A DNA stretch of 64,000 nucleotides. Source: Atractiella rhizophila. Its lineage: Eukaryota. Position numbers and translations under genes: made by a program. This document shows positions 1,581-47,410 of this stretch, one piece after another. Each line of letters starts with the position of its first letter. Position 1 is the stretch's first letter. The notes under the pieces were generated by a model. It worked only from the letters and a program-made list of their open reading frames with translations, did no database searches and was not told the DNA's origin. Location: positions 62,001-126,000 of the forward strand of contig MU271230.1 of assembly GCA_021432655.1 (NCBI GenBank). The letters run 5' to 3'.

Positions 1581-2929
1581 TGGTACAAGGCATTGTTCCA
1601 TTCAGGCTTCAAATACGAGGCGGCTGGGTCAGACTCCAAACTCTCACATCACTCTCAGATGCCCAAGATTCAAGGAGGTGCGAGCGAACAAGAAAGCGAT
1701 CGCGAAGGGGGCTCGTGGATAGATTCGTGGTTCGGCCGTTGTTGAAGGTGAACAATGGTGACGCAATGGAAGGAGGATAGCATCCGCTTCGCCTATTGAT
1801 GGTTGGAACATCTATGTGGTTCCTTCCGATTGCATTACATCTGAGTTGAACAATGAAGAACGATTGAGAACAGAAAACTGCCTACAGCATGAACCAAGCT
1901 CTTTAGTTTGCTCTCTTGCCCGCCGCGCAAGAATCGGTCTCATGCAAGCTTTGTCAAAGCTTCCCTGCCAAAATGGGCGGCGAAGTGAGGAAGGGCAGCT
2001 AATTTGGAGATATCGCTTCTCATCCGATTGAGCCTGCGTTGACTTGAGATGAACAAGGCTTCCAGGCTTGGATATTGCCTGGATACGCAACATGCGAACT
2101 CTGTGCTCGATTAAAACGGAGGACGCCTCTTCTGTGACAGCAATTAGGTTTACAGCGTAAGATGGAATCGACGTGCATAGTTGTATATAGACATAACCAC
2201 GTCCAACAAGCCTCGCAGCTCAATTCTTCATCTTGGTGGTCTGATCAATGGCCTCCACCGTCAGACCTTCTCCAAAACCACTCTTTCCCTCCACGCTTAC
2301 CAGCTCCCTAAACTCGAAGAGGGGACTTACCCGCAGGAAGACTCTGCTTGAGCTTCTCTACCTTCTGGCCAGTAGCAAGCACAAGAGTGTAAAGGTAATT
2401 TGAACACCAGATCTTGAATTTGGCGACGGGTTCTGCGGAATTGAGGGCCTTGGACTTCTTGGTGGCAGAGTCGAATGAGGGTTTGGCGTTTGCGCGACAA
2501 TATGTGTGCTTTATGCGAGCGACTGATTGTGGTATCAGCGCTTGTGTTAGTAGGTGAGGGGAGGGAGGAAAGGACCTTTGGCATCCTTTCGTCGAGCAAT
2601 TTCGAGGGATGTGTGCTGGCGAATTCAGATTCCTATGCCCCATAGAAATGGCAAACACGAACTACTTTATGGCTTTGATTTCTCCTTCGTCGCTAGTCTA
2701 ATGTCAACACCAAACTCACAAGAGAGCAGAAGACTTACGAGGTTAACTTGGAGTCCGCAATCCTACAAAGGGTATGCACCGTACTGTCTAGTCCTCCCGA
2801 TTACTCCTCCTTCACTAATTTCGTCGTCCGCAGGACGTCCATGATGCTTGGAAGGGAATGACAGGTGAAGGAATGCAGCGGCTAACTTTGTAGCGGGATT
2901 GAATGACATCATTCAACTTGGAGTGGGAG

Positions 2930-5900: not shown

Positions 5901-5970
5901 GTAATCACTGCGGCATTCATTATCATGTTCCCTTCCTCCTCTAGCAGTTTGTGAACAACGACTGCAGGCG
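2930..5970. repeat. Diverged segmental duplication, copy A (partner ~11380-14760)
   Basis: Colinear matching blocks: GCACAAGCACGA(A)CCACTCTTCGCT at 3056/11531, TGACCATCCGAAGGC at ~4327/12741, ATCGRGCGAC..TTCCTCCTCTCCTT at 5201/14221. Ends are approximate. Confidence 0.7.
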
Positions 5971-6483
5971 AGGGAGGAGTATGTGTTCATGACTGGAGCT
6001 ACGTAATCTTTGGCAGCTAGGTCCGGCGTCCGTTCCCCACATCCACCGCTTGAATGACTTCTTACATTCTTAGAGTGACCCTCTGCGCATAATATCGTGA
6101 AAGACTCCCGAAGTCCAAGTTTTCCGCCTCATATAACAACACACTTCCAAGTTTCCGCCTCATATAACAACGCACTTCTATTGTCAAGAACAAACGATCC
6201 ATCCGTCTCCCCATTCTCCTTCATTCTCCAAAGAACTTGTTCATCTAGGTAATCTCGCTGCTCGGTGGACCTTTGTCGCCAAAATCATGATCTCGGTTGT
6301 CAGGATGGAAAGCAGGATGGAAAGCAAGATAAGAAGGAAGAAGAGAAGAGTGATTTTGAGGAGAAGGCTGACGATGAGGATGGTAAAGGCTTGTGATGCG
6401 ATTAAGGCACAATTTATTCTCCACCTTCAGCTTTCTTCTCTAACATGGATTATGCGGAGTAGTCTGCAGTCTCCTCTCAAAAG

Positions 6484-7410
6484 ATGAAGGCTCTGGTCCT
6501 CTCTCAAAAGATGAAGGCTCTGGTCCATGTCATCACCCCAGCGAACTATCCGGATTCAGTTCACCTCTCCATTCTTCCCTCTTTCCTAGTTCACCTACCT
6601 CCATCAATTCACACGCTCCGGATTTCATTTGTCTTTTCTCGTTCATCGCGCCGGTATTGGAAACCGTCCTCAAAATTGTCTAATTTATCACTTGAACGGC
6701 TCAAAGATGTAGTTGACAAGGGTGGTGTAATCAACTTTTGCATTACCATCACCCGTGAAAATGTCACAGTAACCTTTTTGGAGGTTGAAGGGCATCTATT
6801 GGCTGTCAAAAGAGCTATCAAAACGGCTTCGCGTGATTCACATGGCGACCAGTATTGTTATTCTTTCATATTTCCTCGTGTTCACGAGAATGCTATATTC
6901 GCCCCCATAGCCTCATACTCCCAACACGAAGGGTGCTTCATTCCCATCAGTGGCGACAATTTGTCAGCCCTCCCATCCCTCTGGACAGCTGGCATTATCC
7001 AACTCTCCATCCCACCTCCAGATATTACTCTATGCTCAATCTCACGCTTGCCTGTGGAGCTCCTCTCTTTCATATTCAGTTTCTTCGACGATGTTTCCAC
7101 CGTTTCTGATGTATGCAAACTCTGGAAAGCCGTTGCAGTTCCCTACTGGCTTGAACCTGGTTCTGTGGAGGAAAAGTATGAGTTGTTGAAAAGCTATCCT
7201 GGTGCTGGACGTCTGTGGGACGGACTGTGGTTTGGCGAAAGTAAGGATGTTGGGATGGTGAAAGAGGTCATCGCAGGCTCCCCCAATGTTACGAAAGTGG
7301 AGATGTATGCATTTTGGAATGAAGAGGACGCGAGTCTTGTGTTGAATGCAATTGAAGGCTTGAAACAGGTGGATGACGTACAGTCTCCATCTCTGTCTCT
7401 GCCACGATAA
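6484..7410 (+). pseudogene. F-box family copy 2, truncated before most of the LRR region
   Basis: Aligns to copy 1 up to ...EGLKQVDDV (~7380), then unrelated sequence and a stop. A 27-bp tandem duplication lies at the start. Confidence 0.7.
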
Positions 7411-8266
7411 GATGTCCCAGCTTCCTATTTCGCTCAGGTCAAACCTGGCCAAGTTGTTTGTGGACGGAGTTGCGGCCGCTACCATGTGTTTCGATTATTT
7501 GGCTCTTCAGATCATTGACAGCAACACATCAATCAATATGCAATTTACCTGTGTAGTAGCTCCTGGAGCTCCCTCCATTCAGGCCTGATCAGGGCCAACA
7601 TGTCATCTGAACATTCTCCCGAACACTCGTACATCGAGGGATCAACTGGCTCTTCCCTCCCTGTCCTCCGCCAGCCCACCACCTATTCTCTCCGCGACGC
7701 ACCGAAAGCGGCTTCAATCAGTACTTCTCTTCCTCAGGACAATTCGTGAAGTAGCTCGACTTGCTATGGTCGTGTGTAGGAAGCCAAGAGTATTGAACCA
7801 CGGGATCTAGGTACGGACCTGCCCATCCACCCATTAAACAACTTGACCAATCTAGGTAAGTCCGCTTGCTCTGCTTGGATCGCTTGTTCATTAATCAAAG
7901 AAGGTCGTTTCTCCATGCCCAACACGAACCAGACGGTCGTCCTGCTGAAGTCCGAGTTCTCCACATCACATATTAAAGCAGGCAACGTCCTTCAATCCCC
8001 CAACTCCAAACGATACATCGATCTTGCCTTTCACCTTGATTATCCCACAAACTATTCGTCAAAGCAGTCTCACAGCTCACAGTTTGGACCTCGGCTCATT
8101 CTCGTCAAGCTTCGTCACAGTTTCGATCCCGTCAAGATGAGGAGGAGGTAAGGAGGAGGTTGACCCCTGCTGATGACACCATCCAGGCATGATTTCATCT
8201 CCAACTTCGGCTTTCTTCTCATCTAACATGGGTTATGGGTTCTAGTTTGCTGCCTCTTCTCGAAGA

Positions 8267-9928
8267 ATGACGGAGGAGCAAACAGCTGGCCTTTGCCATG
8301 GCTCTCAAGAACCAAACTCGAGAGCACTTGTCCATGTCATCACCCCTAGTTATGTGCCCGATTGGATTCACCTCTCCATTCTCCCCTCTTTCCTATCTTG
8401 CCTACCTCCGTCAATTCACACGCTCCGGATTTCGTTTGCCTTATCGCCATCATTGGGGAGGCGGGACCTTGTAGAGATGTCATCAAAATTGTCTCATTTA
8501 TCACTTGAACGGGTAGAGAATGCGGTCTACAAGGACGGTGCAATTAATCTTCACATTATCGTCAACAGGAAAAGTGTGTCAGTGACATTTTTGGATGTTG
8601 AAGGGCATGCGCCGACTGTCGAAGAAGATGCCGAATCAGATGTCGACTCGCTTGCATCAGATGGCGATCTATATACTCACACATTTCCTTTCTTTCGCGA
8701 GAATGCCATATTTGCCCCTATTGCCTCATACTCCAAACATAAACACTGCTTCATCCCCATCGGTGACGACGAATCGTCAACCGTCCCATCCCTAGGGACA
8801 GCTATCATCTTCCAACTCTCTGTCCCACCTCCAAATGTTATTCCCTGCACCATCTCACGCTTACCTATCGAGCTCCTCTCTCTCATATTCAGTTTCTACC
8901 ACTCGGACGCTTCCATCCTCTCTAAAGTGTGCCAGCTCTGGAGCGATGTTTCAGTTCCTTATTTGAAGGAACCTCGTCACGGTGCTGTGGCAGAAATGTA
9001 TGCGTGTTGACACGCTATCCAGGTGGGACGTCTGTGGGAAGGACTGGATTTTGATGAAAGGATGGATATTGGGATGGCGAAAGAGCTCATCGCAGTCTAA
9101 CCGAAAGCGACGACGGTGTGGATGCGTGCATTTTGGAATGAAGAGGAGGTGAAGATTGTGTTGAATGCGATCGAAGGCTTGAAACGGGTGGATGACGTCA
9201 CGTTTGCACGGTGGGGTTGGAGAAAGTGGAGGAAGGAGGAGATCGAGAACTTTATGCGGAGGATGGGTGACAGGATCAGACGGCTCGAGGCTCATGACGT
9301 GGAGGATTCTCCCACTTCAGCCTCAGCAGGTCTTCACTTATCTTCTCGCCTCGAATACCTAAAACTGGGAAAGTACCCGCCTCTGCCATCGCTCTCCCTC
9401 CCACATACCCTCAAGGACCTCACACTCTCCCATATGTGTCCACTCCCTTCCTCCATGTTAGACTACCCTCTGCCACCTCTTCTGGAATATCTCACCATCA
9501 ACCTCGCCCCATTCCCATTCTCTGCCGATGGAAAGACCTCCATCCTACCTACTCCGCTCGACTTATCACACCTCACACACCTTACTTACCTAATGCTCAA
9601 CGGGGGCGAAGAAACGGCAAATCTCGTTTCTCGCCAATTCTTCAGCACCCTCAAAAATGCAACGGCGATACGGGTGATATCGCTCGCATACTGTGTAGTG
9701 GACTCGTTCGACTGCCCAGACTTCATCCACTGGTTCTTTGGAGATTGGCGGGTGAGGGGAGGTGAGAAGGGGGATTGTGTTAATGGAAAGGCGATAGGGT
9801 GGGACCTTAAGGTTCGTTTATTCTTTGGAGAGTGGAGCGAGGAGGAGATCGTGATTGCGAGGAGTGTGATGGGAAAGTACAAAGGCTCCTCGTCAGGCAT
9901 TTGGGAGCCTGGGGAGGGAGGGGAATAG
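8267..9928 (+). pseudogene. F-box/LRR family copy 3, frameshifted or stopped at ~8980-9110
   Basis: Two ORFs (8267-9010, 9116-9928) together align to the full length of copy 1. Confidence 0.75.
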
Positions 9929-10829
9929 TGTAGAAGGCACATTCTGATTCAGGGTCCGGACATCTGGAGCTACTGGATCAGACTCCGGACTCTCACATCG
10001 CTCCTAGCACCCCATGATTGATGGAGGTGGCCGTGAACAGGAAAGAGTTTGCGAGGGGGACTTGTGCACTTGTTTCGCTAGCCAGGCAAATGCCTAGATT
10101 ACAATTGGGAGGATCCCACTAGGGCACCCCGACGTTCAAATGATTGTTAATTACTCGTTGACAAAATGTACAACGAAGGATTTCTGAAAGGAAGTCCTTT
10201 GGACTGTGAATAATATGATCTACAGGAGAAAGCAAAAAGAAGAGGCCTCTCATAAGTTCAGTCAATGCCAAAGCTGGCCATTTAGCGCTGCCTTCAGCAC
10301 ATTGGAGATGAACTCATTCATACTCAGCTCGGAACTCCAAATTCGAACCCTCCTCTGGTGACTTCCTCAACACGTCCCTCCCAACCCCGAACACCTTCAG
10401 CACAGTCATCACCTCTTCCACCCCATTTTTCTTCCATACATCTGCTATGGCCAAATGATTGAGCGGCAGGAATTTAACGCGATACACCACCACATCTTTT
10501 GAGCTTCTGTTTCTTTTCGACGGAACAAGTGCCTTTGGAGAATTCTAGGTCCGCTTCTGTAAGCCTGCATGGAACGATTGTTGATAAAGCTGCTGGACTA
10601 GGTGATGCAAAAGAGTGGGGATGCTAGATGTCATTGGAGAGGATGAAGGGGAGAATCGGAGAGGAGGGATGGTCCGCAGCGGTGGCCGCTCTACTTCATC
10701 TGCATCTGTAAGCAATTGTCAATCCAATCTTCTGAATGGTAGAACATAAAATACCATCGTAGAGAAAGAAAGGAGCAGGTTTACCTTGATTGATGTCTCT
10801 CTGTGCCAGACCCTCCACCACAGTAGTGT

Positions 10830-11260
10830 TTCCGAATCCAGGTTCCCATGACAGCAAATTATTCATTGCACTCCTACACAAAATCCTAACCACCATCCCT
10901 TCTAAGGATCACATCCAGCTTTCCCTTCGCCACAAGCGAGGGAATTCAACCGCATTCTTATTGACAGCATCAAACCCATCCTCCGCTGTCTTCTTCCAGC
11001 TTTCGACACCCTTACCGTCTCTGGCCTCTAGTCACACGTGGGGATCATGCAGTGCTCTGTATTGTCACTGACTCGCTTCAGAGAAAGGTGAGGCATGTGG
11101 AGGAGAATGGCGACAGAAGACGCCCCTAAGAGTCGGTGTGGCACTGGAGTCAGTACAATACGGGGAAGGAGCTCGAAGGAGCGAAATAGGGATGGAAGCC
11201 AGAGGAAGATCGGGGGGGAGGGGGTGAATGGAGTGGCTAACTGGAATGCACGTAAATGCA
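10830..11260. repeat. Diverged duplicate of ~15140-15560
   Basis: Shared AACCCATCCTCCGCYGTCTTCKTCCAGCTTTCGACACC, GGGATCATGCAGTG and GGGGAAGGAGCTCGAAGGAG blocks. Confidence 0.65.
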
Positions 11261-11379
11261 TCGATTACGTCACTCAACTTGAAGTCGAGACAGGAACATG
11301 GGAGAGTGCTAAAATGACGGTATTCGGGTATGGTCTGTTCTTTTTAGCAGCACTCTGTTCTCACCTTTCATGCCGCTTT

Positions 11380-14300
11380 GTCTGGCCAGGTTCACCATTT
11401 GCTGCTCACACTAACGAAGCACCATTCAAACTACAACCTGCTCCACCGTGACTGCACTCCTCCTCATCTCCGGTCACGCCACACCTCTTCATCCCCTCAC
11501 ATCCCGATGCCTTGCAACCGCTCTCGCCCTGCACAAGCACGACCACTCTTCGCTTCCTCTCCAATCACCATCCTCACAACACTTACATCCCCACCTCCGC
11601 CTTCTCCGCCTCCGCTGTAGCCTTCACGTAGCACCACCTGACCTACTGCGCAGGCTCCCACCCTGCGTTCGAATGGACTCGCTCGGGGTGCGCGGGAGAG
11701 CGTCAACCCTCCCTCCACTTCCCTCTCCTTCCACCTTTCACTTTTTCCAGAGTGAACGGCTGGAGTTGTCCAGCGGACAGGTCGGTTCAGAGGACACTTC
11801 AACGGAGGAATGAGAGGGAGGTGGGTTGGTCGAAGGTTTCGTGGCCTAGAAGGGACAGCTGGTAGCAGACGATGATTTATTTACCGCCTATGCCTTTTCT
11901 GAGGAGAAGGGTGAGGACAGTAGGCGTGGTACGGAGCACTGGAGAGTGGTCAAAACACCAATTACCAACCGTATGTCTGCTCTTCCTAGCTGCAGGGCAT
12001 CACGTAACCACGCAACAGGTTCTCTGGCAGGAATTTGGCATGGCATGGGCGACTCCCTGCTCCAAACCATCCTCTACACCGCAAATCCTGTCCATCCCTC
12101 TCCTCCCGGCTCGTTCCACTTCGTCTGCGCCATTCACCTCCTATCTCCCCCGCTGGCTCGCTGGCTCACTAGCACCACTCAGGATATTCGGAAAGCGCAC
12201 GCTTCCTCATTCTCTAATATCTTTGTCAGGGTGATGATGGCAAGGTTATGGAATGGGGGGGGGAGAATGCATGGAAAGCTGGAGGGAAATAGAGAACTGA
12301 TGTCTTGGAAATGGGAGGAAGACAGTCTCGAGCAGGAAAGGAGTCTGGAGGGGGGTTGGCATGGGAGAGAGCCGGTGCTGTTTCAAGGCCTAGAGAGCTG
12401 ATATTATGATGAAATTAGTACTGGGTGGATGGCTGATTCCCAAATCAGGGATCGGGAGATGGAGCAGGTAAAGTGGCGCAAATTGACTTCGATGTGCGTC
12501 TTCCATGTGGATCCCATGCGGATGCGATGGAGAAAGACGAGGGAGTTGACATTGTTGAAGCTCTGGTGCCCCATCCAAAGCGGGACATTCGCCACCTTCT
12601 TGTCAGCAGTGGTGGCTGCCCACAGAATATTCAATCTGTTGAAAGGTGGTGTATCGAACGACGAAACCACAGTGTGTATGCCTTCCTTTCCTAAGCAGGG
12701 GAGATTGATGATGACGATTTAATTCAGGCACTGGCCAAATTGACCATCCGAAGGCAATTCGAGAGATGTACACTTTGTGCTCCCATCAAGGTTCGAGAGA
12801 ATACCACACATGAAACGCACAACTACCATATGCCAACCTCACCAGAACGGAGGACTTGCCTGCCATGCCAGTTATAATGCCTTTCAATCGCCTCTCGCTA
12901 TCATTATCACCAATACCGTGAGGTTATAGAACACTCCCTTTTCTCCATCGCTGACTCGCTTTTGTCAGCCCCTTTCACCTCCTTTATCAAAGTGTTATCC
13001 TTGCCTGGATTGCAGTCTTCTTGTCAGGTCTTCATTGCTGTTACTCTGCTAATAGATTCAGAGACTGATGTTGCATGTATTAGGATCAGTTCTTGACGAC
13101 TGTACGTCCTTATCCTCCTCTCTCCTATTACCTCTCCATCCACCCTCACCAAGCCATGTGTTGACCATAGAACAAAATTGTCATGCAACTCACGCCTTTG
13201 CTGACGGCCTCTGTTCCACTTATGACCCTCTCCGACATACGCGACAGGTCCCAAGCTTAAACACGGACATATTAGAAGCTAGCTACACCTACACAGGGCG
13301 CCCCAAATCAATCGATTCTCCCTGATCCAACGACACGCTGTGCTCCTGACTGAATCCTTTCGGCTTAGGAGTAGATAAGATTTAGTTAGCGCCATGCCAC
13401 TTACCGCCGCCAACCTTCCTGAACTTGCTCCCTCTTACAAACCATCTGCAGGGGGGGTGCCGGATTGGAGTTGGAGAGTCCGAGGATCCATGAGAAGGGA
13501 GAGCTATCGAATGGGGAGACGGAGAATGTGGCGGAATCCTTCACCGTTGAAGGAAGGAGCGGGTTATCGTGGTTCCCACCTTGCAGGAGCATTCGATCGG
13601 ATAGTTGGAGGCAAATCTACCTTCGAATCTGCTGGCAGTAGCAATTTCGTTCCTCTACGTACTCACACAGGACAGAGACTAAGATCCCGACGTGTACACG
13701 ATGCTGAACAAGATTTATCCGAGTAACGTGACGAGGAAGCAGGGTGAGGTGGGTAGAGTTTTGTAATAACGGTATCCATATCGAGAGGAGACCGAAGAAT
13801 GAGTATACGTTCTTTGGAGATTCTTTGGAGTGGGGGAGGGAGAAGGATTCTGTGGAATGCCTTTGGAATGACGCTCGAAAATGGCTTACCACTTGGAAAT
13901 AACTTAGTATGTCAACCTCATCCGTCGCCCCTATCCCTATGTCCTACAAACCGATGCTGAAGGTTTGCATGTGTCAGAATGGATCATCGCTATCTTCATC
14001 TTCTTCTTTGTGATCAGACTGTTTTGTCATCTACCAAGGAGACAGTGTCGATAGCCTCACACCGGGAACAGGCCAAAACAGTTCGCCCTTCGCAAGAATC
14101 TCGGGCAGTTACTGATTGTTCCTTACTCCTAGTCGTCGAGACGATAATATTATGCACATTAAGTTTCAAGCGACTCCACAGTTTCCGGACTTGATTGATA
14201 AAGATGACTTTGGAGTCTCGATCGGGCGACATCCTTCCTCCTCTCCTTTGACTAACAATCGTCCTCGAGACAGAAGCGACAAATGCGTCAGAATCCTTTG

Positions 14301-14760
14301 CAGTCTTTTGCTCACTCGCTTAAGAAAGTGAAAAGGGAAAGGGGAATGATGAATGAGAACCTCAGTCTGGGCATGTGAGGCATTCAAGTTTGGAGCTGAA
14401 AGAAAGAGGATGAGGGATGGGGAGAAGGAGCATGGAAGCTATGGAGGATGCAAAGCGGTTATGGATCTGTGACTGACGTATGGCATAATGGGAGAAAGTG
14501 GACCGTGAAGGAGAAGGAATTCCTTAGATGAGATTCTTGAGTTACTGTATTCACTCTCTCATATCTTGCATGCACACTCGCTCAAACCGAAACACGAACT
14601 GACTTGTCTCCTCCGTTCAAGATTTACTCCTACCGCCGAACGACTGTAAGCCTTTCAAATTGCTTATCTCTGCTTTTGTCTTCCACAAGCAGCCCATCTA
14701 TCCACGAGGGAACCTTCATCATCATGTTCCATGCCCCCTCGAACACTTTGTGAACTATCT
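11380..14760. repeat. Diverged segmental duplication, copy B (partner ~2930-5970)
   Basis: See copy A. Copy B has extra sequence at ~12780-13400. Confidence 0.7.
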
Positions 14761-15782
14761 CGCCTCGTCTCTGCCGCGTGGGAAAGGGAATGGAGAAGTA
14801 TCAAACCATGATGTTCACGACTGTAACTGCATCGCCTTCAATCAGGACAAGCATTGTTTTGATTCCAACTTGTCGAGGTGCAACTTCCGTTCCCACTTCC
14901 TCCACTTAAATCTCTTCCTTCATTCGCAGAGGGTTAATTCCATCTGGTTAATAGGAACTAGCCGTCGCCTTCTTCGACGTCCGAGTTTTCCGAATGCGCA
15001 CAACGTTCGTGCACCAACAATGTGCCATTCTCCTTGATCTTCCCACAAACTGCTCACCTATGGTTATTCCTTTCTTGGAACGTGACCTCAACATCCTTCT
15101 TGAAATTCGAGTTTGCCGCATCAAATAAAGGTACACAACTTCTATCCATCCCACAACGACCACAATCCATCAACCGTGCCATTCTCCTTCATTTCTCCCA
15201 CAAACTGGTCATCTGGGTGCCTCATAGCCCACGGCCTGAGGCCTGCTCTTTGCCCGTCAACCCATCCTCCGCCGTCTTCGTCCAGCTTTCGACACCTTCT
15301 CCGCCGCCTCCTTACCCCCTCTGGCCTCTAGCCACAGGTGGGGATCATGCAGTGCGCTGTGTTCTCGCTGACTCGTTTGTGAGAAACGTGAGGCGTGTAG
15401 AGGCAGAACAGTGACTGAAGAATCCCCTCCGAGTCAGCTGGACTTGTGCGGTGCTGGAGTCCGGCATACAATGTGGGGAAGGAGCTCGAAGGAGAGAAAT
15501 AGGGAAGCCGGAGGAAGAACGAGGGGGAGGGGTGAATGAAGCGGCTAACTCGAATGCGGCACAGAGGATCGACTAGAGGGGAAGGTGGATGGATGGAGCT
15601 GTCGTCGTTCTCTTGTCTCAATGAAAATGTAGTGCATATAATGTTTCGAATTAATGCATGCATTTCTGCACCAGAAGAGAGGAGCGTGTCAGAATTTCTG
15701 ACAACAATCGCAGTGAAAATAGAAGCAGACCTTTCTTCAGCTACTCTGTGCACCAGTATCACTATATGAATCCCTCCCAATT

Positions 15783-16149
15783 TGTTAGGGCTGACACTAT
15801 GTGCGGTCGCCAACGGGCGATGCGTCTGTAGTGGAGATAAACCTAAGAGAATACTCTAAGGTCACCTCCACTACTCTCTGATCTATATATACAAGCGGAA
15901 TAACACTGCCACATAGCGTAGAGGAGAGCAGATGAAACATGTAAGAGAACTAAAAGGGAAGTGACAGTGGGATTACGTGGAGTTAATAAGAGGAGGATAG
16001 GCACAATTGGGCTAAGTGGTGATGTAGGTGCAAATGGGCGACGGGAGACGCAGTGGCGAACGGGCGCCGATTCGCAGGGAACGCAAATGGGCGAGAGGAG
16101 ACGCAATCCGGCGAACGGGCGCCGATTTGCGTAAGATGCAAACCTGACA
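15783..16149 (-). repeat. 3' LTR (367 bp)
   Basis: Near-identical to 21828-22231 except for a 37-bp indel and scattered substitutions. Confidence 0.95.
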
Positions 16150-16354
16150 ACACCCCCCAGTTTCTGTGGTTCTTGCAGTAAGCAGAAACTTCTACTTCAT
16201 AAGGTTTGCCAATTTTGCGAAAAGTGCCTGAAGTACCAGCCGCCGCTCGGACAGAGTGAAATTGTTGGAGCAAAGAGACATGGTGTACCTCGCAATTTGA
16301 GGAATTTTTCGAAGTTGACCAGGTGTTGTTTTGGTGTAATAAGTGTCCATTCTG

Positions 16355-16754
16355 CGAAAACGGGCTGGACAACTCACCAACAAACCGGTCGCCGATCTGT
16401 CCGTTGAGGAACAGACCGGCGCCTCACCTAGACCTATGTTCAACAATGTGACTAGGGATTCACCCAGCGAGGCATGTAGAGGAGTAGGACCTCTTAAAGT
16501 GAGGGGGAGGGGACCTCGCGATTGAGGGCAATTTTTCGTAAATGCGACATTGGTGATGGTGCGAGAACGCAATGAGCATTCGTCTTTGACGGGTGACGAA
16601 TGGACTCACCAACGACCAAGTCGCCGACTTGCCCATTGAGGAGCAAGTCGGCGCCTTGCCTTGACCTAAGTCTCAAAGACTAGGATTTCACCCGGCAAGG
16701 CATATAGGGGTGTTGGACCCCTTAAAGTGAGGAAGACCCTTCAGCCCGTTTTCG
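16355..16754 (-). ncRNA. Candidate structured cis-RNA element (two tandem multi-stem domains) at the pol stop / 3' UTR
   Basis: Repeats 16372-16504 and 16604-16732 keep three stems through compensatory changes. Both are enclosed by a 13-bp inverted repeat CGAAAACGGGCTG / CAGCCCGTTTTCG. Confidence 0.65.
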
Positions 16755-19700
16755 TCGAAGGTTACGAAAACGCGTGTTTGGGCGATTTTTTGCGGAGTTC
16801 GGTATGGAATCGGGACGAACTGCGAGAGGGTGTGCAGAGTGATAGTCTTTTATAGCATCCTGCGAATTTTCTAGATCTGCGATGTTGATCCACTCGTCCT
16901 CAGATGGTGAATACCCTTTGTATCAAACACGATATTTGAAAACTCTATTTCGGGTACCGAACCATTTTCCATCGACAATTTTCTCCACTTCCCATTCTTC
17001 AATTCCATTCACCAATTCCGCAGGTGGTTTGGGCAACTGGACTCTGCCCGGGATGTCGTCTTCGTTGACTTTTCGTATTAGACCTACATGGAACACTGGA
17101 TGTATCTTCCATGAGGATGGCAACTTGAGTTTAAGGTTGAGGGGACCCAAAACTTGCAAAACACGAAAAGTGCCATTTGTCGTCTAACTTTTTGACGGGT
17201 CTCGTTGATTTGATGTTTTTCGCGCTCAACCAGACGAAATCGCCGGCGTGATATTCGGGCGCCGGTGCGCGTTTTCTGTCATGATGTTTTGCCATGAGAT
17301 CTGCTGCTTGCTCGAGTGCCGCTTGTGCTTCCCGGTCGGCGATTTGCATCTTTTCGACGAATTGCGCGGCCGCGGGAACGTCCTCGTCGGAGATGGGTTC
17401 AAAGGCCATGCGGGGATGTTGACCGCAATCGAGCGAAAATGGAGTTACGCCCGTCGCCGAACTGACGCGATTGTTGAGCGCAAATTCTGCATTGGGAAGT
17501 CCTTCCACCCAATTATCTTGAAGGTGATTGCAGAAAATGCGAAAATATTATTCAACCTCTTGGTTCATGCGTTCAGTCTGACCATCACTTTGCGGGTGAT
17601 AGGCTGTCGATGGTGAGCCTTTGATACCTAATAGGCGAAAAAGTGCGGATGTGAATTTGGACACAAACTCTTTGCCTCGATCGAAAATTGCGACATCGAA
17701 AAGTCCATGTAACTTCCATACGTGATCGCGAAAAAGTCTTGCAAGGCCTTCTGCATCCATCGTCGAATGGGTGCGAATGAGATGGGTGCGTTTTGAGAGT
17801 CTGTCCACTATGACGAAAATCGTGTCAAACCCCCCAGATTCTGGGAGTGGTCCAACCAAGTCCATGCTGACAATTTGCCATCGACGCGTGGGAATGTCAT
17901 TTGGTTGTAAAAACCCGACAGGTGGGGAAGGAAAGTTTTTTGTTCTGTGGCAAGTGTAACAGGCGCCGACATAGCGGCGAACGTAATGCGCCAAACCCGG
18001 CCACCAGTAGTACCTTTTTACGAGAGCCGTCGTCGATTTTACGCCTGGATGACCGGCGATTTGCGAATCGTGCAGGTCTTGCAAAATCGAGCGGCGAATT
18101 TCGTCGTCGCGGGGAATGTAGAGTTTTCCGCGAAAATAGACAGCGCCATCGACTTCTTGCCACTCCCGTCGGCAAATTGCGTCGACTGGTTCGTCCAGGA
18201 TCTCTCTCAAGGCTTTGACTACTTGTTCTTCCCGTTCAGGTACCCTTTTCATGCGTTCCAGTATACTCAACTCCGACATTTGTGTTGTGAGCGCAACCGC
18301 GCTCCCAGTCGCGTTGATCGTGATACGATCCGTGTTGAAAAAATGTTCTGGGAGTAATACTATGTCAAAGTTGTCGCAAGTCGCCGGTTTGTGATCCGGT
18401 CGCCGACTGAGCACATCTGGTTTTGCGGAGTTTCGTCCAGGACGGTCTAATAGAGTGAAGTTGAAAGATGCAAGTTCAGTGATCCAGCGCGCCTGTCGCC
18501 GATTCAACTTTTGTGGCATTCTGAAATACTCAAGATTTTTGTGATTGGTCAAGATCAGAAATGGCTCATCAGTACCTTGAAGAAGGTGTCTCCATTCTTG
18601 CAGTCCACGCATAATTGCGAGCATTTCTTTGTCGTAGGTGTCATAGTTCCTCTGGGCATTGTCGAGCGATTTTGACACGAAACCGAGAGGATGAAACTTC
18701 CCATCAGGCTTCATTTGCGACAGAACGGCGCCTGTCGCGAAATTTGACGCGTCGACTTCGAGCAAAAATCGTCCTATTTGTTCGGGATGTGCCAAGACGG
18801 GCGCCGAAGTCATGAGTTGTTTCAAAGCGGCGAACGAACGTTGTTGATCTACCCCCCAGACCCAGGGAACCTCCATTTTCGTCAGTTCATATAAAGGTCG
18901 TGCGATGTGACTGAATCTGTCGCAAAAGCGGCGATAGAAATTAGCGAAACCGAGGAACATTTGGACTTCCTTCATGTTTTTTGGTTCTGGCCAATCCATC
19001 ATTCCTGCAACTTTCACTGGATCCGGTTCGATCCCTCTGCTGGAAATGATCAAGCCTAGATACTCTACCTCCTCTTGACACCAAATGCATTTCTGCAAAT
19101 TTACGTAAAGTCCATTTTCACGCAAAATTTGACAAACTTGTCGGACACGTTCCCAATGTTCTTCTTCAGTCTCTGTCGCAATGAGGATGTCGTCGATGTA
19201 TACGAAGATGAACGCAGCGGCGATCATCGTGCGAAAAATAGAGTTCAGGAAGGCCTGAAAAGTCGCTGGTGAGTTGCAGAGACCGAAATACAGCACCAAT
19301 GGTTCGAAAAGGCCGCGATTTGTGCGAAACGCCGCTTTGTGCTCGTCTCCTTCTTTGATGCGAACGTTGTTGAAACCCTTTCTCAGGTCAATCTTGCTAA
19401 AAAATTTCTTACTAGAGACCATGGAGAAGAGGTCAGCTTGGATAGGGAGTGGAGTTTTGTCCTTGATTGTGGCTTCATTCAACTTACGATAGTCGAAAAG
19501 GGGACGAAGTTCGGGTGAGTCTTTTTTGTGTGTAAAAAAGACGGAAGCACCATGTTCACCTGTGCTAGGACGTATACGACCAGCGCTCAGTTCAGCGTCA
19601 ATGAATTGGTCGAGCGCCGCTTGTTCGTCTCTTTTCAAGGGGTAGATGGGACCAGCATATGGTTGAGCTTCTGGTTTGAGGTTGATGGCATGGTCCCAAG

Positions 19701-20517
19701 GTCGTCAAGGAGGAAGCCAGGTTTTGAATTTTTCGTCGTCGAAAATGTCTGCAAAATCGGCGATTTGCGCCGGTATTTCGACAACGCTTTTTGGTCTCAT
19801 CGCCGCTGCGTCTTTCGCCAGTTTCTGCGATTTTGTCATGGCGGCACGTATTGAGGCAGAGGACGATGGAACTTGGTCACGTGTGGTAGACACATCAACC
19901 GCATTGCAACCGGTGGGGCAACGAGAGAACTCAACTTTCCCTGATGCCCAGTTAATCTCTGGGTTGTGGTGTCTTAGCCAGTCATGACCCAGAATCATGT
20001 CGACTGTCCCCAACTCCGCCACAGCGAATTGCCAAACTTCGTGATGGGCGGCGATCGAAATGGGTAAATAAGCGACAGAATGGATGGAACCCCCCTGATT
20101 GAGGGATCCGTCGATATTGTAAACGGGCACTGGGGAAGGGAGTTGAGTGACGGGTAGGTTGTATTCAGAAACGAGTTTCGGAGAAATGAAGGAAGTAGTT
20201 GCCCCGCTGTCGAAGAGCGCGGATGTGGCGTGTCGGCGATGGGAATGTGGGTGATGAAAACCGGTTCTGAGTTTCGTTTTAGAACTGACTAGGGATGCCG
20301 TTGTCGAACGTAGGTGGACTTTGTCGTACATTTTTGCGACATCTGCGCATCTTTGTCTCCAAGATGGAAAACGCAATTTTGGAAATGGGGAGTCATGTTC
20401 GGGAGAAGGGAAATCTGCGCAAAGCGGCGCTTTGTTGGAAGTAATTTTAAATGACGAAAATGAATTGCAAGTCGGCGACGGGGACACTCCTTTCACCCAT
20501 CGCCGTCTCAAAAATCC
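16722..20517 (-). pseudogene. pol: pol: protease, RT, RNase H, integrase, chromodomain
   Basis: PR LFDSGATTSFI; RT LYFGLCNSPATFQ and YIDD; RH EVDASNFATGAVL; IN H..HPG..CYTC, SMDLVGPLP, DRGKEF, GQTER; chromodomain EEWEVEKIVD. In-frame stops at 19705, 17548 and 16923, plus a frameshift at ~17155. Confidence 0.95.
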
Positions 20518-21766
20518 TCCCACAGATCCGATGATTGAGTGACGGTCGTTTTCGGCCACCGGTCGGAGATTTGCGCAGATTGTCGTTCTTATTCTACGAG
20601 ACGAGTGTCGAAATATTCTCCTTGTGCACGAAGGTATTGCTCTTTGCTCATGGATATCTTGCATTCCTTCTCTCTGTGTCCGATCCTTTGGCATCTTCGA
20701 CAACGAGGCGGTCTGAACTTCGTTGCGTCCACCTCCATATCGTCGGGATCTTTAGCTTCATGAGATTGCGAAGCGGCGATGGGTGACAGAGCAGCGCTCA
20801 GTCGGTACAGTGGCGGTCCGCTGTTGTCTTTCTGTTTCGTTGATTTTGAGTGATCCTTCTTTGCTGAAGGTGTATTTTGGGTTCCACTCGTCACCAATGA
20901 GATGCCCCGAAAGAAGCTGGAATGTGCGAATTCTTCTGCGTCGATTCGCCGCGTTTTTTCCTTCCACTCTTCAAGGGACTTGGGGAAATCTCCTTGTGTC
21001 ACTTTAAGGTGTAAGGCAGGATTGAGGCCCCGTTTGAAGAAAAATGTGAGCGCCTCATCATCAAAGTCTGTCTGATTTGCCAACTCTTCAAACTTGATGA
21101 TGTAGGACTCTAGCTTGCCTTTCTGTTGCAGGGAAGACAGTTTCGTTTGCGCAATAAGTTTGTGGTCAGTTTTGCAAAATCGCGATCTGAACTCCGACAA
21201 AAATTGCTCCCACGAAATCTGTTCCTCATTTTCGACAAGTCGGCGCAGTATCCCAGCGGCGAATTTTTCAGCGTCTCCTTCTTTCATATATGATAGAGTA
21301 AATAAGATTTTCGATTTTTCTGAGGGGAACTGTCCTGGGATGGCAGACGTGTAGATGTGGATTTCGCGAAGAAAGGTCGGCGCCGAGCTAGGCACTCCTT
21401 TGAAGATAGAGGGCGTGGCAAGTCTGATTCCTGCATAAGGCGAAACTTGTGCATTTTGAGGTATTAAGTTTGGGGTATTGGGTCTGTTCGCGATAAAAAG
21501 GGGGAGGTGGTCCCACTGTCTCTAGGAGAAGGCAGTCTGGAGTCCAGCAATTGTAAAATTCGGTCGTTTGTGTTCTGGACGTCGGACCTCAGTTGCGCAA
21601 TTTCGTGCGCATTTTGGGAGGTTTGCGCGTTTTGTTGGTTGAAACTTGCTACGAGATCTTGTTCGATTTTTTTGAACTGCTTTTCGGTTGTGAGGTGTAG
21701 AGTTTGGAACATCCTTTCTAAACGATGGATGCGTTCTTCGCTCGTCGGCGATTCGCGCGTTTCCAT
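20508..21766 (-). pseudogene. gag: gag with CCHC zinc knuckle
   Basis: Retrotrans-gag-like region (QQKGKLESYIIKFEELA..FFKRGLN) and CRRCQRIGHREKEC. Frameshift at ~21470 and premature stop at 20589. Confidence 0.9.
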
Positions 21767-21827
21767 ATCTCCTCAAACCTCCGACATTTTTTAAGTTTGG
21801 TTTTGAAATTGAGAGAGAGTATTCTTC

Positions 21828-22231
21828 TGTTAGGGCTGACACTATGTGCGGTCGCCGATAGGCGATGCGTCTGTAGTGGAGATAAACCTAAGAGAATACT
21901 CTGAGGTCACCTCCACTACTCTCTGATCTATATATACAAGCGGAATAACACTGCCACAGAGCGTAGAGGAGAGCAGATGAAACATGTAAGAGAACTAGAA
22001 GGGGAAGTGACAGTGGGATTACGCGGAGTTAATAAGAGGAGGATAGGCACAATTGGGCTAAGTGGTGATGTAGGTGCAAATGGGCGAACGGGCGCCGATT
22101 TGCAACGGGAGATGCAGTGGCGACGGGAGACTCAGTGGCGAACGGGCGCCGATTCGCAGGGAACGTAAATGGGCGAGAGGAGACGCAATCCGGCGAACGG
22201 GCGCCAGTTTGCGTAAGATGCAAACCTGACA
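21828..22231 (-). repeat. 5' LTR (404 bp) with TATATATA box
   Basis: Direct repeat of 15783-16149, upstream of gag. Confidence 0.95.
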
Positions 22232-22267
22232 CAATTCTTATCGAGCATCCTCCTATTTGTCCTTTCC

Positions 22268-25200
22268 ATGAGATCCAGCTCAATGCACCCTAGTTCGACA
22301 TCCCATCTCATCCCTCTCCATGACAGCCTGAGATCCACTAGGAACTCTTCATCGCCATATCCCTCCATTCGTGCTCAAGCCAGGAAGAAAAAGGCGGAGG
22401 AGGATGGGCTACGATTAGCAACACGTGCTGCTTTACGCGTTGATTTCATCGCAACTTCCGGCATCTCATTGAAGCATACACCCGCAAGGATCCTGTGCCT
22501 TCACGAAGGGTTCCTTACGCATCGAAAGTCCGACTCAAGATACAACAGCCTCCAGCATCTGAGCCTCAGCATTCCCGGCTTGAAATGGATATCTCAACAA
22601 CAGACCTCGATGCAATTCCTGCAGGCAACATGAACGATGGAAGTGATGAAGAGATGGAAGTCAATGGCGATGAGATGATTGTTGGAGAGAGCATAGAGCT
22701 GAGAGAGGAGGTGGAAGTTATTGCATCGATTGCTGAAGATGAGCAGACGTATCATAATCCAAATCCTGATGAAGCCCCCCAACCTGTTGGAGCTGTAGAG
22801 CTCACACACGCGACCCCACTATGGTAAGGATTCTCGCATGTGATGAAATGGCATTAATATTTGTTTTTGTGTTGCAGCGACATTCGTGATATCCTCATGC
22901 CACTTTACGACGACAACTCCGAGAATCTTTCATCTGTTCCTCCAACACATCCAGATGATATCCCCAGGCTTAGTGACAAGCGGCAACTTACTTTGGACAA
23001 GTTCCAAATCTGGCACCGAAACAACGAGAAAGAGGCAAGCTATGAAGGCCATCGTCAAAACTGGACTTTGCGTAAGCATGAAATGCATACCCTTCCTGAG
23101 GCAAAAAAGATGCTTGCTGAGCTCAGCGGCTTGGCCGGAGAGTGGTTGCCTATGTGTGGAGCCTCTTGCAGCTCCTATCTTGACAAGTATGAGAAGTTGG
23201 ATGGGCAAGTTGGTTGTTTTCGAATAGCAAAGAAGGTGCTAAAGAAAGACTTAGATGTCCACATTCGTGCAAAATTAACGGCGCCATTGTACCATGCAAC
23301 CGATCTCGCTTTTCTCTTTCCTTTGGACGATCTGCAATACCAGGTGATTCATCAAGAACAAAGAAGAAGAGTGAAAAGCATTTTCTCTTCTACAATCCCC
23401 TCCATCAAATTAAGGCGAAGTTCCCGGCTCCACAGAATGCTGAGATGATGGGGTACTTTGGAAGGAAGCTGGGAGAGACACTGGCAAAAACAGAGCATTT
23501 ATTAGACAAACTGCGCCGTGGATACACTTACGATGACTTCCACCACGGGCACAGCAGTCCAAGCCCTTGCCAACGATAACATTGGCTTTATGGAAGACGA
23601 ACGAGAATCAGTCTTTATTGCTTCGACAGACGGTGCAGCCATCCATGCCACCCGCGACTCTAACATGTGGTTCATCATCCTTTCGTTTCTAGGCTTCGAC
23701 ACGGGCGTACGAGCGAAACGTCATCATACATATTTCACCTTAGGCGTTCCTGGTCCCAACAATCCCGTTGACATCCAATCGTTCTTCATTCCATTCTATA
23801 AAGCTATGGCAAAGTTGAGTGGAGGATTGTGGATGTGGGATGCTGGATATCGAAGGTGGTTTGTTTGGAAAGGATGGCTGCTCAACAAGCTCGGGAAGAA
23901 TCTCACACTGCTTCCTTAAAACTCACATTGAAAGACACATAGGTGACATGCTTGGCTCTGCAAAGGCTAATGGCTGCACGGGCCATCAAGGCAAGTGTGG
24001 CTGTCGCTTTTGCAAGCTTATCGGTCGGCTTCTTGGCCAACACTACTATTACCCATGTATATCGCTTCCTCAGGATGATGGTACACTACCTGATTATCGC
24101 CTAGTCGCCTACGATCCTCTAAACCTTCTCATTCGCACAACGACAGAATACACACAAATAGCAAAGGACCTAGCCCTTGCAACGACCCAAAAAGCTCGTT
24201 CAGAGATAGCTCGTGACAGTGGCATCATTTCCATCATGCCCATATCTGGTCTCGCTACATTTCGTGATCCTTGGACCATTTTTGCTGGGGATCTTGCTCA
24301 TCTCCATTGGAAGAATGATGCTGAACTCATTTTCGATTCTACCATGGGGATCAACAAGCAGGAGTCGCTTCCTAAACCATGGCATCCGACACAGCAAATT
24401 CGTGAGGAATTTGGGAACCCATGATCGAATGCTCCAAAATTGATATTCCCTACGCCTTCTCTCAGGCGGCTCTTCGAAACATATACCGATTTCGAAACAC
24501 TCAGTACAAGATGCACGAATAGTGGGACATTTACGACTGGCTGCTTCTTCCTAGCCTTTTCCTCCTTGGATTTCCTCTCAACGTCCTAAACGTAATTGAC
24601 TCTTTTGTCTGTGGCTGCCTGCTCGCACAGCAGCACCAGATTACAGAAGAGCAGTGGCTCAAAATTCGAGAATATTTTGCCAATTTCATGACAGGCTGGG
24701 AGAAGGTATTTGTACATGGGGATCGGTCTCGACTTGTTCGAATACCCATGTGCATCCGCCATCTCTTGCACGTTGCCGATTGGATTCTCTGGTGGGGCCC
24801 CCCGAATTCTCTACTCGCAATTTCCAATGGAGGGAATGATTGGTTATCTTAAAAAGTGTATCAACCAGGACAACAAGTATCAAGAGAATCTCCTTAACCA
24901 AGCACTTTTGCAAGAGCAGCTGAACATCGTTGATGTTCTCTATCCAGATGAAAATCCCATTCATGGCAAGTCTGCCCCTCGGTTCTGTCAGTTGTCCTTA
25001 TATCCTCTCACAACTCTGTCTCTTCACCTCGATGGACATCTATTCCTGTCACCAAGTTAGTCAAACTGCGAGGCAGCGATTAATTCGTAGAATGGATGCA
25101 TGAGATCAATTTGATTCAATCCTACAGTGCCTCTCATGGCAAGAATCTTGACGGAATAGATATGGAGAAGACTGTTGCAAAATGGGAGTACTGGGGCCGG

Positions 25201-26502: not shown

Positions 26503-28647
26503 TGTCAGGTTTGCATCTTACGCAAATCGGCGCCCGTTCGCCGGATTGCGTCTCCTATCGCCCATTTGCGTTCCCTGCGAATCGGCGCCCGTGCGCCACT
26601 GCGTCTCCCGTCGCCTATTTGCACGCAGTGCAAATCGGCGCCCGTTCGCCCATTTGCGCCTACCGACCTCAAACACGCACCATACTCCTCCCCTCCGTTT
26701 ACTACACCTGTTACAACGCCTCCATTAGGGTCTGTATTGCCTACTACTCTCGTCTTCGTACTCTTGGCACCGGTAGTTGTTACTCCTCTCGACCTGCACA
26801 GCCTAGCCCGGTGAAAACCTACTCCCTGTATTTAACTATACTTGGTGTCTATCGGGTTTTGGAGTAGACAGGTAGGTAAAAGCCTCTCCCGTTACGATTC
26901 TAGTCAGTATATTCATTTTCTTTTCCAAAAGTCTAACTTTTCCTGTTTGTTCTAGAGAAAAGAAACTAGTAGGCTATCGGGTGAGTTGGTTGAGAAGACC
27001 TTAGCAAAAGGACTCTTCTATTTTTCTCCCCCCTCTCTCGACGGTGAGCGTCATTGTGTAAGCTATTCCCAATGGTCAAGTTCGAACAGACTGAAACGAG
27101 CTATTTACCGAGAAGAGAGTCGTCCGGGTTAATGCGCTGCCTGAGGATAGAAGGCCGGCGGAGGGTCGAGGTTTGGGAAGAGTAGGTATAAACGGTCTAG
27201 TAGGGTATTTTAAGGCATAAAAGAGTACCGGGGGAGCTCTTCTAGTTTTATCCTCACTTGTAAACAGGCTAACTTTCGAAAACGTGCGAACCCTAGGTTT
27301 CCTAAACGAAACTTTGAGGCTTAGAGACAAGGTACGGCGAAGTAGTTTGCCATTATGGTCGGAAAAGGGACCGCCGGAGGGGTGTTAGAAGAAGTGTTGG
27401 TCCATATTTGGGGAGGATACTTCTCCTTCGGGACTTAGAGGCTGGGTGGCTTAGGTCGAATAGTCAGGACGAAGGAGAGGGAAATGAGTTGTTCGCGACT
27501 ACAACTACTGAAAGATGGGCCAAATTGGGGAGGTTCTGTGGCCATGGATTCTCATGGTATTAAGTACTTCCATTTTGGAGGTAAAGGTAAACCTATCCTT
27601 ATGGCACTTCGTTCAATAGATATCCTTTACCGCGTGACACCCAGGAACCAAGAGAGCCGGAGAAGAACCTCGAAGGTTATTTAGAGGTGACGAAGGTGTT
27701 TCAGGAAGAGGGAAAATCGGTTGTGTAGAAAAAATGATTCCAGGAAGAAGAAGAAACCACCGTAAGCCTCCTCCGACCTCGACACCCCTGTGCCAACCTT
27801 CAACGCAACCATTCCTGCACAGCTGGGTTCGTGCACTGGTCTTTTCGCACACCTTAACGACTGAACTTTGAATTTAACGCCTAAAACGCGTTGTACGATT
27901 GTTACCTCGTGGTCTGAAATTGTTCACCAGAGAGTAGTTCAACATCCGACTAGACTCGTTTTGAATCTGTCACCTTATTGATCTACAAAGAGAACAAATA
28001 AGGGTTTTTTTTAGTGTCATTAGTCTATAGGAATGACTCTTTATGTATTTAAGTAATGACGATATAAAAGCTTCTATAGAGTTTCCCTCAAGGTGGTTAA
28101 ACAACGACTTATCTCTCCTTTTATACGCGTGTACGTTCCTCTAAGACTTATGTTTAAAAGATTTCCCTAACCTAAACTAAACCCGCTGAAATAATATACC
28201 ACAATTTCTAGACCCATACAATTCAAAGACCCATGGTGTATCATCAAGTGCTTAAACGGGACTCCTTCTTCTCTCTGTAACTAACTTCGGCGAAAGCAAG
28301 GCGGAGACTTCTCTGATACACTACCCGACCACCTGCGGTTTCCTCCCTTCTCCCTCAACTAGGGGACCTTGAAACGTCCCGCCCACAATCCCGACTGTGA
28401 CATCACCTCTATTTTGGATTCACGTACTATACTGTACTTCTGATTGGACATCACCTCTATTTGGATTCTCTTATGAGACTCCAGTGGAGGTGATGAGAGA
28501 CTAGATATATATGTTCGCCTTATTGTGACGGTGTCTCGCATCTCCTCTCGTCTACTTTGTACATTCTCTTGATCTTCCCCTTCACTGTCACCCTAATGCG
28601 CCTCAATTATTCTCCTCCTATCCGTGTTAACCCGATTCACCACTACA
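26503..28647 (+). repeat. Solo LTR of the same chromovirus family, split by the mirrored segment (26503-26661 plus 28647 back to 28385)
   Basis: TGTCAGGTTTGC start. Reading 28647 leftwards continues the LTR to ...GCCCTAACA. Flanks CTCGC / CCCGC form a near-TSD. Confidence 0.85.
26662..28647. other. Mirrored segment 1 (reversed, not complemented)
   Basis: 28449-28647 is the base-by-base complement of LTR 21873-22071 (one extra T). Flipping the segment restores LTR continuity. It abuts the 253-N gap at 28648-28900. Confidence 0.95.
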
Positions 28648-36305: not shown

Positions 36306-36330
36306 NNNNNNNNNNNNNNNNNNNNNNNNN

Positions 36331-47390: not shown

Positions 47391-47410
47391 ATAATTGATG
47401 TACATGAATT

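Follow-up and report, generated by a model that had tools for sequence, protein, structure and literature searches.

Structured RNA elements located between the last open reading frame (ORF) and the 3' long terminal repeat (LTR) have been described in several retroelements. The direct repeats (DRs) of Rous sarcoma virus (RSV) and avian leukosis virus (ALV) and the constitutive transport element (CTE) of Mason-Pfizer monkey virus (MPMV) occupy this position, where they recruit host factors that export and stabilise the unspliced RNA, and they also affect its packaging (PMC9143442). Long spacers between ORF and LTR are unusual, and a functional RNA element is located inside the spacer of the plant element Evade (PMC12501189). 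To our knowledge, detailed accounts of cis-acting RNAs in LTR retrotransposons are limited to a few retroviruses, the yeast Ty elements and, more recently, the plant elements for nuclear expression (ENEs). Here we describe a tandem pair of structured RNA units in the corresponding spacer of a Ty3/gypsy chromovirus, which is located on the minus strand of a 64,000-nucleotide stretch of contig MU271230.1 (this whole stretch is the window and all coordinates refer to it). The stems of the two units were found to be maintained by matched changes well past chance.

Shared fold and matched changes of the two cores

The spacer between the stop codon at which the chromodomain frame of pol ends (TAA, 16724-16722) and the 3' LTR, which starts at 16149, was measured to be 572 nt, in agreement with the value of about 570 nt in the original prediction that preceded this analysis. 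Within it lies a tandem duplication that repeats every 228 nt or so, each unit consisting of a core (about 130 nt) and a linker (about 100 nt). The prediction had described two copies of about 130 nt; two cores of that size are present, but the true repeat unit is the longer one. The cores of unit 1 and unit 2 are 127 and 131 nt in length and are located 456 and 224 nt upstream of the LTR respectively. A covariance model (R1) was built from the module. The main parts of the array are the following, where P1 denotes the closing stem of each core:

16605..16731, minus strand: core of unit 1, with P1, hairpin a (16706-16722), hairpin b (16653-16701) and hairpin c (16623-16652); covariance model score 166.2 bits
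16373..16503, minus strand: core of unit 2, with P1, hairpin a (16478-16494), hairpin b (16421-16473) and hairpin c (16391-16420); covariance model score 166.8 bits
16504..16604, minus strand: linker 1 between the cores, which holds hairpin e1 (16577-16602) and hairpin d1 (16514-16527)
16722..16724, minus strand: nominal pol stop codon UAA, located where P1 joins hairpin a in unit 1, from reading of the frame

On the sense strand, each core begins with the closing stem CUCACU/GGUGAG, within which hairpins a, b and c follow one another to form a four-way junction. The stems of these hairpins are 5, 16 and 12 bp in length respectively. Hairpin b has a conserved asymmetric internal loop (GGGUGAA / UCNA), hairpin c ends in the hexaloop CUCAAY and the loop of hairpin a is UCCNACN. 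Both this layout and the arm sequences given in the prediction match the minus strand exactly. The same hairpins were obtained from folding the whole stretch, from the single units and from the two-sequence alignment, with pair probabilities of 0.6-1.0 across the shared fold. In unit 2 the shared fold is equal in energy to the minimum free energy (MFE) structure (-50.9 kcal/mol in both cases) and in unit 1 it costs 1.1 kcal/mol (-63.1 against -64.2 kcal/mol). The region has a z-score of -7.8, with 0 of 100 shuffles folding equally well, and the single units have z-scores of -6.1 and -3.0.

Some additional contacts were considered and rejected. A mini-helix of 3 bp, placed after hairpin c and before the closing stem, was dropped for its low pair probability (0.13-0.18). 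A kissing contact of the b and c loops, with 5 bp in each unit, loses its unit 1 version to the majority family letter at 16672. A pseudoknot between the loop of hairpin a and the junction of hairpin c with P1 would form 5 bp in unit 1 but meets mismatches in unit 2.

All 78 cells at the 39 trusted pairs (two units each) were observed to hold standard pairs. Between the units, five pairs changed on both sides and three on one side, the latter all to G-U, and none of the 39-42 pairs was broken. The double-sided changes are found in hairpin a (one), in the base of hairpin b (one) and in hairpin c (three). As a control, the 3' partners were slid by 1-3 columns, after which 28-44% of the cells paired and no double change was seen. 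A shuffle control with two sequences cannot fall under 1/32 (here 16/500) and therefore a mutation simulation was run, in which 29 random changes were placed on unit 1 at the observed transition share in 200,000 runs. Simulated mutation breaks 10.5 pairs on average and not one of the 200,000 runs broke none, while at least five double changes arose in 0.14% of the runs. Differences between the units occur at 13 of the 84 paired positions against 16 of the 43 unpaired ones. The claim that the copies differ yet keep their pairing is thus upheld by five double changes, no broken pair and no matching simulation.

Part of the stretch is contained in 18 public sequencing runs, which are mostly soil and rhizosphere metagenomes together with three organisms; no RNA run is among those listed. 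Four runs were compared at 80% likeness, with 370 contigs of the run here called X1 and a single contig from each of X3, X4 and X8. The region is present in contigs of three other runs, and both cores are spanned by contigs of X3 (16378-16760) and X1 (16394-16669). Since contigs elsewhere span both cores, the duplication is older than this insertion and is a trait of the family. A total of seven family polymorphisms were found within the cores. Three are located at paired sites and all three keep the pair: 16426 is G-U here and G-C in about 98% of the family depth, 16428 is U-G here and U-A in about 25%, and 16629 is U-A here and U-G in about 15%. The remaining four (16474, 16497, 16635 and 16672) are located in loops or junctions, where the change at 16672 disrupts nothing beyond an apical pair found in unit 1 alone. 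This pattern is consistent with constraint but is a weak sign of it because any transition at a G-U pair keeps the pairing.

We also noticed that the summed contig depth in X1 is 3-8 times higher over 16370-16745, which covers both units and linker 1, than over the end of pol and the rest of the spacer. The depth is 35,000-48,000 over the units and 1,600-15,000 over the flanks, although contig depth cannot rank parts of an element and is a hint only. In addition, several X1 contigs diverge from the reference at the core borders, leaving loose ends (16371 and 16504), and the units may occupy more contexts or copies than the flanks of the element.

In both units the sense strand gives the more stable version of the shared fold, at -54.4 against -49.1 kcal/mol in unit 1 and -48.9 against -33.8 kcal/mol in unit 2, and two G-U pairs are common to both units. 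According to the prediction, G-U pairs occur on the sense strand only. The sense preference of 5-15 kcal/mol in the shared fold agrees with this, but at two of the three G-U pairs confined to one unit, other family copies have Watson-Crick pairs. Since 16426 is G-C in nearly the whole family depth and 16428 is U-A in a quarter of it, part of the G-U signal reflects recent C-to-T decay of this copy. Freely folded, the whole region does as well antisense as sense. The assignment to the sense strand is therefore moderately supported, resting also on the sense transcription of the element.

The repeat array and its carrier element

Identity between the units is 77% in the cores (96/125) and 47% in the linkers (44/93). 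The terminal 60 nt or so of pol align with the 3' end of the linkers as a partial third linker, and because of this likeness the array can be said to open with a partial linker, the tail of pol being repeat sequence. The stop codon likewise belongs to the repeat since the same UUUAAG recurs at the equivalent place in unit 2. The pol UAA was predicted to sit directly in front of hairpin a and it is indeed found at the junction of P1 with this hairpin; however, the stop is only nominal because the pol frame is already lost upstream through changes of frame and an in-frame stop (16925-16923). The motif CCUCAA is found four times within 340 nt of the spacer, always in or at a hairpin loop. Hairpins e1 and e2 (16345-16370) occupy equivalent positions in the linkers and have unrelated stems, an observation in keeping with maintained pairing, though not a formal test of it. 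Tandem Repeats Finder called no array at the spacer. Differences between the units fall evenly over codon positions (13/14/12), without periodicity, and the 137-aa open frame that lies over unit 2 found no relatives in a protein search; for these two reasons no coding signal is seen in the module. Further parts of the array are:

16288..16302, minus strand: linker hairpin d2, CCUC..GAGG around a CCUCAA motif, with a weak 4-bp stem; the fourth CCUCAA of the spacer
16345..16370, minus strand: linker hairpin e2, GUCCA/UGGAC, whose loop contains the 3' clamp arm 16355-16367
16742..16754, minus strand: 5' arm of a 13-bp inverted repeat, inside the tail of pol; pairs with 16355-16367

This inverted repeat was proposed to clamp both copies together. 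The repeat is perfect in this copy, is used by the MFE structure and exceeds the longest one found in 150 dinucleotide shuffles (11 bp). However, at 16746, in the middle of the arm, the C of this copy is replaced by G or A in the X3 contig and in about 86% of the family depth, and no change was reported at the partner 16363. Minor family variants at 16355 and 16361 would likewise break clamp pairs. The 5' arm also has a local competitor, as it pairs with 16768-16775 in a hairpin at 16744-16783 (-13.6 kcal/mol). The clamp, although beyond chance in this copy, is therefore unproven. The idea that it is a by-product of the repeated linker hairpins was set aside, as the alignment gives it no clear support.

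The carrier is a single Ty3/gypsy chromovirus at 15783-22231 on the minus strand:

15783..16149, minus strand: 3' LTR (TG...CA), direct repeat of 21828-22231
21828..22231, minus strand: 5' LTR, direct repeat of 15783-16149
15778-15782 (3' LTR side): 5-bp target-site duplication AATTG, which flanks both LTRs
16153..16165, minus strand: polypurine tract AGAAACUGGGGGG, directly upstream of the 3' LTR, from reading of the sequence
16725..16922, minus strand: terminal open piece of pol, with the second half of the chromodomain and a tail of about 45 aa (Pfam Chromo, E=4e-4)

The internal domains are arranged in the order gag, protease, reverse transcriptase, RNase H, integrase, SH3-like domain and chromodomain. 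Pfam matches were obtained for Retrotrans_gag, RVP_2, RVT_1, RT_RNaseH, Integrase_H2C2 and rve, together with SH3_Tf2-1 and Chromo below the cut-off. The domains, the C-terminal position of the chromodomain, the LTRs and the 5-bp duplication are those of a Ty3/gypsy chromovirus. Both gag and pol are spread over several frames, the chromodomain carries the in-frame stop mentioned above, and this copy is dead. The best identity in a search of a large protein database with pol was 54%, which indicates that the family itself is absent from the database. Named relatives of pol, at 44-52% identity, are from Agaricomycetes (Lyophyllum, Pleurotus, Mycena, Trametes, Amanita and others). Two long open frames on the plus strand, 6463-7410 (E 4e-6) and 35066-36439 (E 1e-4), encode F-box-like domains. 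From the Agaricomycete-like pol relatives and these F-box-like frames, the host is probably a basidiomycete.

A primer-binding site of the tRNA type is absent from the element (21813-21827, minus strand). The bases directly after the 5' LTR, at this same place, are complementary to a stretch of the LTR at 21891-21903, which is located about 30 nt downstream of a TATA-like box, and folding of the leader pairs the two segments (-46 kcal/mol, z -1.9). Judged by this arrangement, priming of the element looks like self-priming of the Tf1 type. Furthermore, a 55-nt tandem repeat is found in the U3 part of the LTRs (16029-16142 and 22119-22231), and is present 2.1 times in the 3' LTR. Repeat spacings of 6045 and 6082 show the 5' LTR to be longer by about 37 nt, from which the pair is seen to differ in the number of U3 repeats. 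A solo LTR fragment of the same family is located at 26503-26663 on the plus strand, where it is 90-98% identical over 122-164 nt. Just beyond the 3' end of the element, direct repeats of 94 nt (11010-11103 / 15310-15403) and 45 nt (10973-11017 / 15259-15303), 85-89% identical, are spaced about 4.3 kb apart.

Searches with known models gave no described family. Rfam 15 (4227 models, among them, as far as that release includes them, those for hammerhead, HDV-like, twister, pistol, hatchet, hairpin and VS ribozymes, exonuclease-resistant RNAs, ENEs and tRNAs) searched over 15800-17200 at E<=10 returned only three chance-level matches (14-18 bits against thresholds of 58-84), with no ribozyme model among them, and returned none over the whole window at gathering scores. 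A tRNA-like cloverleaf was likewise not recognised, as ARAGORN found no tRNA gene in 15700-22300 and the Rfam tRNA model gave no match. R1 scanned against the window found only the two units, the solo LTR piece being the sole further remnant of the family. In a metagenome scan with the hairpin c pattern and a free stem, all 58 loci were GC-rich and are probably bacterial chance matches, with no likeness to the units by blastn and no complementary changes at the free positions. Four loci at which the pattern continues with TTGGTGAG (L039, L054, L055 and L058) represent one unrelated intergenic site without unit likeness and were discarded. Pattern scans of viral contigs and prokaryote genomes gave 0-3 loci each, none related; the 13-17 bits of L069 and L070 with R1 were taken as an effect of the search pattern itself. 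A search of viral contigs with pol found five chromovirus contigs at 42-47% pol identity. The IMG/VR contigs L062-L066 (5.5-6.4 kb) are fungal-type chromoviruses with terminal overlaps of 45-114 nt and are probably LTR retrotransposons assembled as circles.

Candidate functions of the module

The module was originally taken to be a selected cis-acting RNA. Much of the case stands, as the stems are kept, the cores are better conserved than the linkers, the fold is better on the sense strand and the layout recurs, whereas the arguments from the G-U pairs and the clamp are weakened. We consider it highly likely that the module is a selected RNA structure. In active ancestors, selection would have preserved the stems through compensatory change and an old tandem duplication would have doubled the module. 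The two cores would then act as cis-acting structured modules of the full-length sense RNA, in its 3' untranslated part, each exposing the single strands of the CUCAAY hexaloop, the GGGUGAA / UCNA internal loop and the UCCNACN loop.

As for the role of such a structure, we tentatively favour an element akin to the CTE and the DRs, by analogy with which it would serve the export or accumulation of the genomic RNA. A host RNA-binding or export factor would dock on the module, and the long, intronless and unspliced RNA would thereby be able to accumulate and exit the nucleus. Introns are often needed for mRNA accumulation in basidiomycetes (PMC3744415, PMC4935854, PMC8379801), and for this reason an export or accumulation element independent of splicing would be especially useful to a 6-kb intronless RNA if the host is a basidiomycete. 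In a narrower version, the module would be the fungal counterpart of the retroviral CTE and the hepadnaviral posttranscriptional regulatory element (PRE), replacing splicing as the licence for export and accumulation. Such a substitute would have evolved in a basidiomycete retrotransposon whose host would degrade or retain intronless transcripts. This version, also built on analogy, is rather doubtful; if true, it would provide a handle on the coupling of splicing to mRNA fate in basidiomycetes.

Several observations weigh against a selected RNA element with a role in export. The covariation signal comes from a single pair of paralogous units, and the structure was itself derived from this pair. 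Neither P1 nor the middle and distal stretches of hairpin b vary between the units, and their sole support is therefore conservation. Of the three G-U pairs confined to one unit, two represent decay of this copy. On its own, unit 1 folds equally on either strand, and the whole 431-nt region folds at -178.9 kcal/mol antisense against -175.2 kcal/mol sense. The five distant chromovirus contigs have neither an R1 match nor a tandem repeat after the chromodomain, which indicates that the module is not general to chromoviruses, and as far as seen it appears to be specific to the family. Furthermore, no feature ties the module to export specifically and it has no likeness to the CTE in sequence or shape. 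As the copy is dead, any function at this locus is historical.

A packaging or dimerisation signal, in which the CCHC zinc knuckle of Gag would bind the GGGUGAA loop together with the repeated loops and thereby pick out the genomic RNA for particles, seems somewhat unlikely. The single-stranded motifs kept in both units would suit such binding, as would a zf-CCHC match in Gag (E=0.0034, below the Pfam cut-off), and the direct repeat of RSV was originally described as a packaging locus (PMC9143442). The unit sequence, however, contains no palindromic loop fit for kissing-loop dimerisation. Moreover, retroviral and Ty packaging signals are mostly located in the 5' leader, whereas the module is located at the 3' end. 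Protection from decay has its own models, as the stability element of RSV blocks nonsense-mediated decay and the duplicated exonuclease-resistant RNA (xrRNA) modules of flaviviruses stall a 5'-3' exonuclease. It is unlikely that the post-stop junctions here protect an RNA with a long 3' untranslated region (572 nt plus U3 and R) from nonsense-mediated decay or stall an exonuclease. The stop codon within the first unit and the duplicated compact multi-branch fold in the 3' untranslated region, with its strongly negative z-scores, would fit this role, but UAA is also present in unit 2 where no frame ends and the stop may thus be incidental. No Rfam family was matched at E<=10, the xrRNA families of Rfam 15 included, and no pseudoknot conserved in both units and able to form the ring was found.

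The absence of any RNA function is also improbable. The region would then be a tandem repeat of a type common between pol and the 3' LTR, with many DNA palindromes whose arms stay complementary through processes acting on the DNA, for example template switching inside hairpins. This would agree with the near-equal folding of the whole region on both strands and with the higher summed contig depth over the units than over the flanks, a depth that cannot rank parts. Copying of arms would, however, give perfect palindromes, yet both units retain two G-U pairs, the antisense version of the shared fold is 5-15 kcal/mol worse and the unpaired motifs are conserved like the stems. The linkers also drop to 47% identity against 77% in the cores, and there are two cores rather than an expanding array, with no joint of extra units reported. 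Communication between the RNA ends is held to be very unlikely. CYC5/CYC3 pairing circularises Ty1 RNA and the 3' translation enhancers of plant viruses use kissing loops; here, the CUCCUCAA loop of hairpin c would circularise the RNA by pairing with a segment upstream of the gag AUG, and weaker copies of the loop in unit 2 and the d hairpins would join in:

21769..21776, minus strand: UUGAGGAG, 5' leader just before the likely gag AUG; complementary to the unit 1 hairpin c loop, a lead only

In its favour, UUGAGG occurs a single time in the 6453-nt element, at this site, where 8 bases are complementary to the unit 1 loop, and the leader segment is mostly unpaired in the centroid fold. On the other hand, the match was found post hoc, the odds of some 8-mer match within the element are about 0.1, and most family copies have CCUCAAC in unit 1 (16635), a difference outside the 8 bases. 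Finally, it is extremely unlikely that each core is an unrecognised self-cleaving ribozyme, despite the conserved multi-branch junction, the invariant single-stranded bases and the tandem repetition. No ribozyme family of Rfam 15 was matched at E<=10 or, window-wide, at gathering scores, and cleavage would detach the 3' R region and the poly(A) tail from the genomic RNA. An LTR element needs the 3' R for first-strand transfer, and it is this loss together with the lack of a model match that makes the ribozyme unlikely.

Returning to the tentatively favoured export and accumulation element, the module is a concrete candidate for how a chromovirus gets its long intronless RNA expressed or packaged. 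If it is such an element, it could be a portable aid for intronless transgene expression in basidiomycetes and mushrooms. The module also suggests that at least some of the spacer tandem repeats of unknown function are duplicated RNA structures.

Comparison with known systems

In position and size the module is close to the DRs of RSV and ALV, which are cis-acting sense-strand RNAs of about 100-130 nt with hairpins, located upstream of the 3' LTR and present in two copies in RSV (PMC9143442). The fungal module has the same 3' untranslated position upstream of the LTR, a similar length, hairpins and a copy number within the one to two of these viruses. The DRs promote the cytoplasmic accumulation of unspliced RNA and affect packaging (PMC9143442). 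They differ in that the RSV copies flank src and are non-adjacent, whereas the copies of the fungal module are in tandem, and in that the DR fold, compared here by its description, is a hairpin rather than a four-way junction. The host also differs, being a fungus here.

The CTE of MPMV arose by internal duplication. It resembles the module as a structured RNA at the 3' end of a simple retroelement without a Rev-like protein, and it directly recruits NXF1/NXT1, an export factor of the host (PMC9143442). Its two internal loops, related by 180-degree symmetry, lie in one long hairpin, whereas each unit here forms a separate four-way junction, and no sequence likeness is seen. The ENE of Evade/Copia93 is also a structured RNA in an unusually long spacer between ORF and LTR; about 200 ENE motifs are described, mostly from plants and fungi, and the ENE raises RNA stability and mobility (PMC12501189). 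In ENEs, U-rich internal loops (tracts of at least U5 on both sides) flanked by G-C pairs clamp poly(A), whereas the spacer of the module has no U-rich internal loop and no U-run longer than four; the longest are two UUUU, neither of which is in an internal loop of a core.

Copies of the flavivirus xrRNA and dumbbell structures are maintained by covariation. Like the module, these 3' untranslated structures are compact junction folds that are arranged in tandem and have diverged, but the module has no Rfam match and no conserved pseudoknot was found in it, and the type of genome is different. The arrays of plant Ty3/gypsy elements (Retand, Tat/Ogre and others) are likewise family-specific repeats between pol and the 3' LTR, to which no function is assigned (PMC11963269). 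They are scored from three head-to-tail copies upwards and their RNA structure was not analysed, the terms 'secondary structure', 'stem-loop' and 'hairpin' being absent from that paper (PMC11963269), whereas the fungal chromovirus has two cores and a partial third linker, with compensatory changes between the cores. In the literature searched, no covarying RNA fold in this position was described for a fungal chromovirus. Repeats between pol and the 3' LTR in plants and 3' RNA elements in retroviruses and some plant elements are known already, and what appears new is the occurrence of such a fold in a fungal chromovirus.

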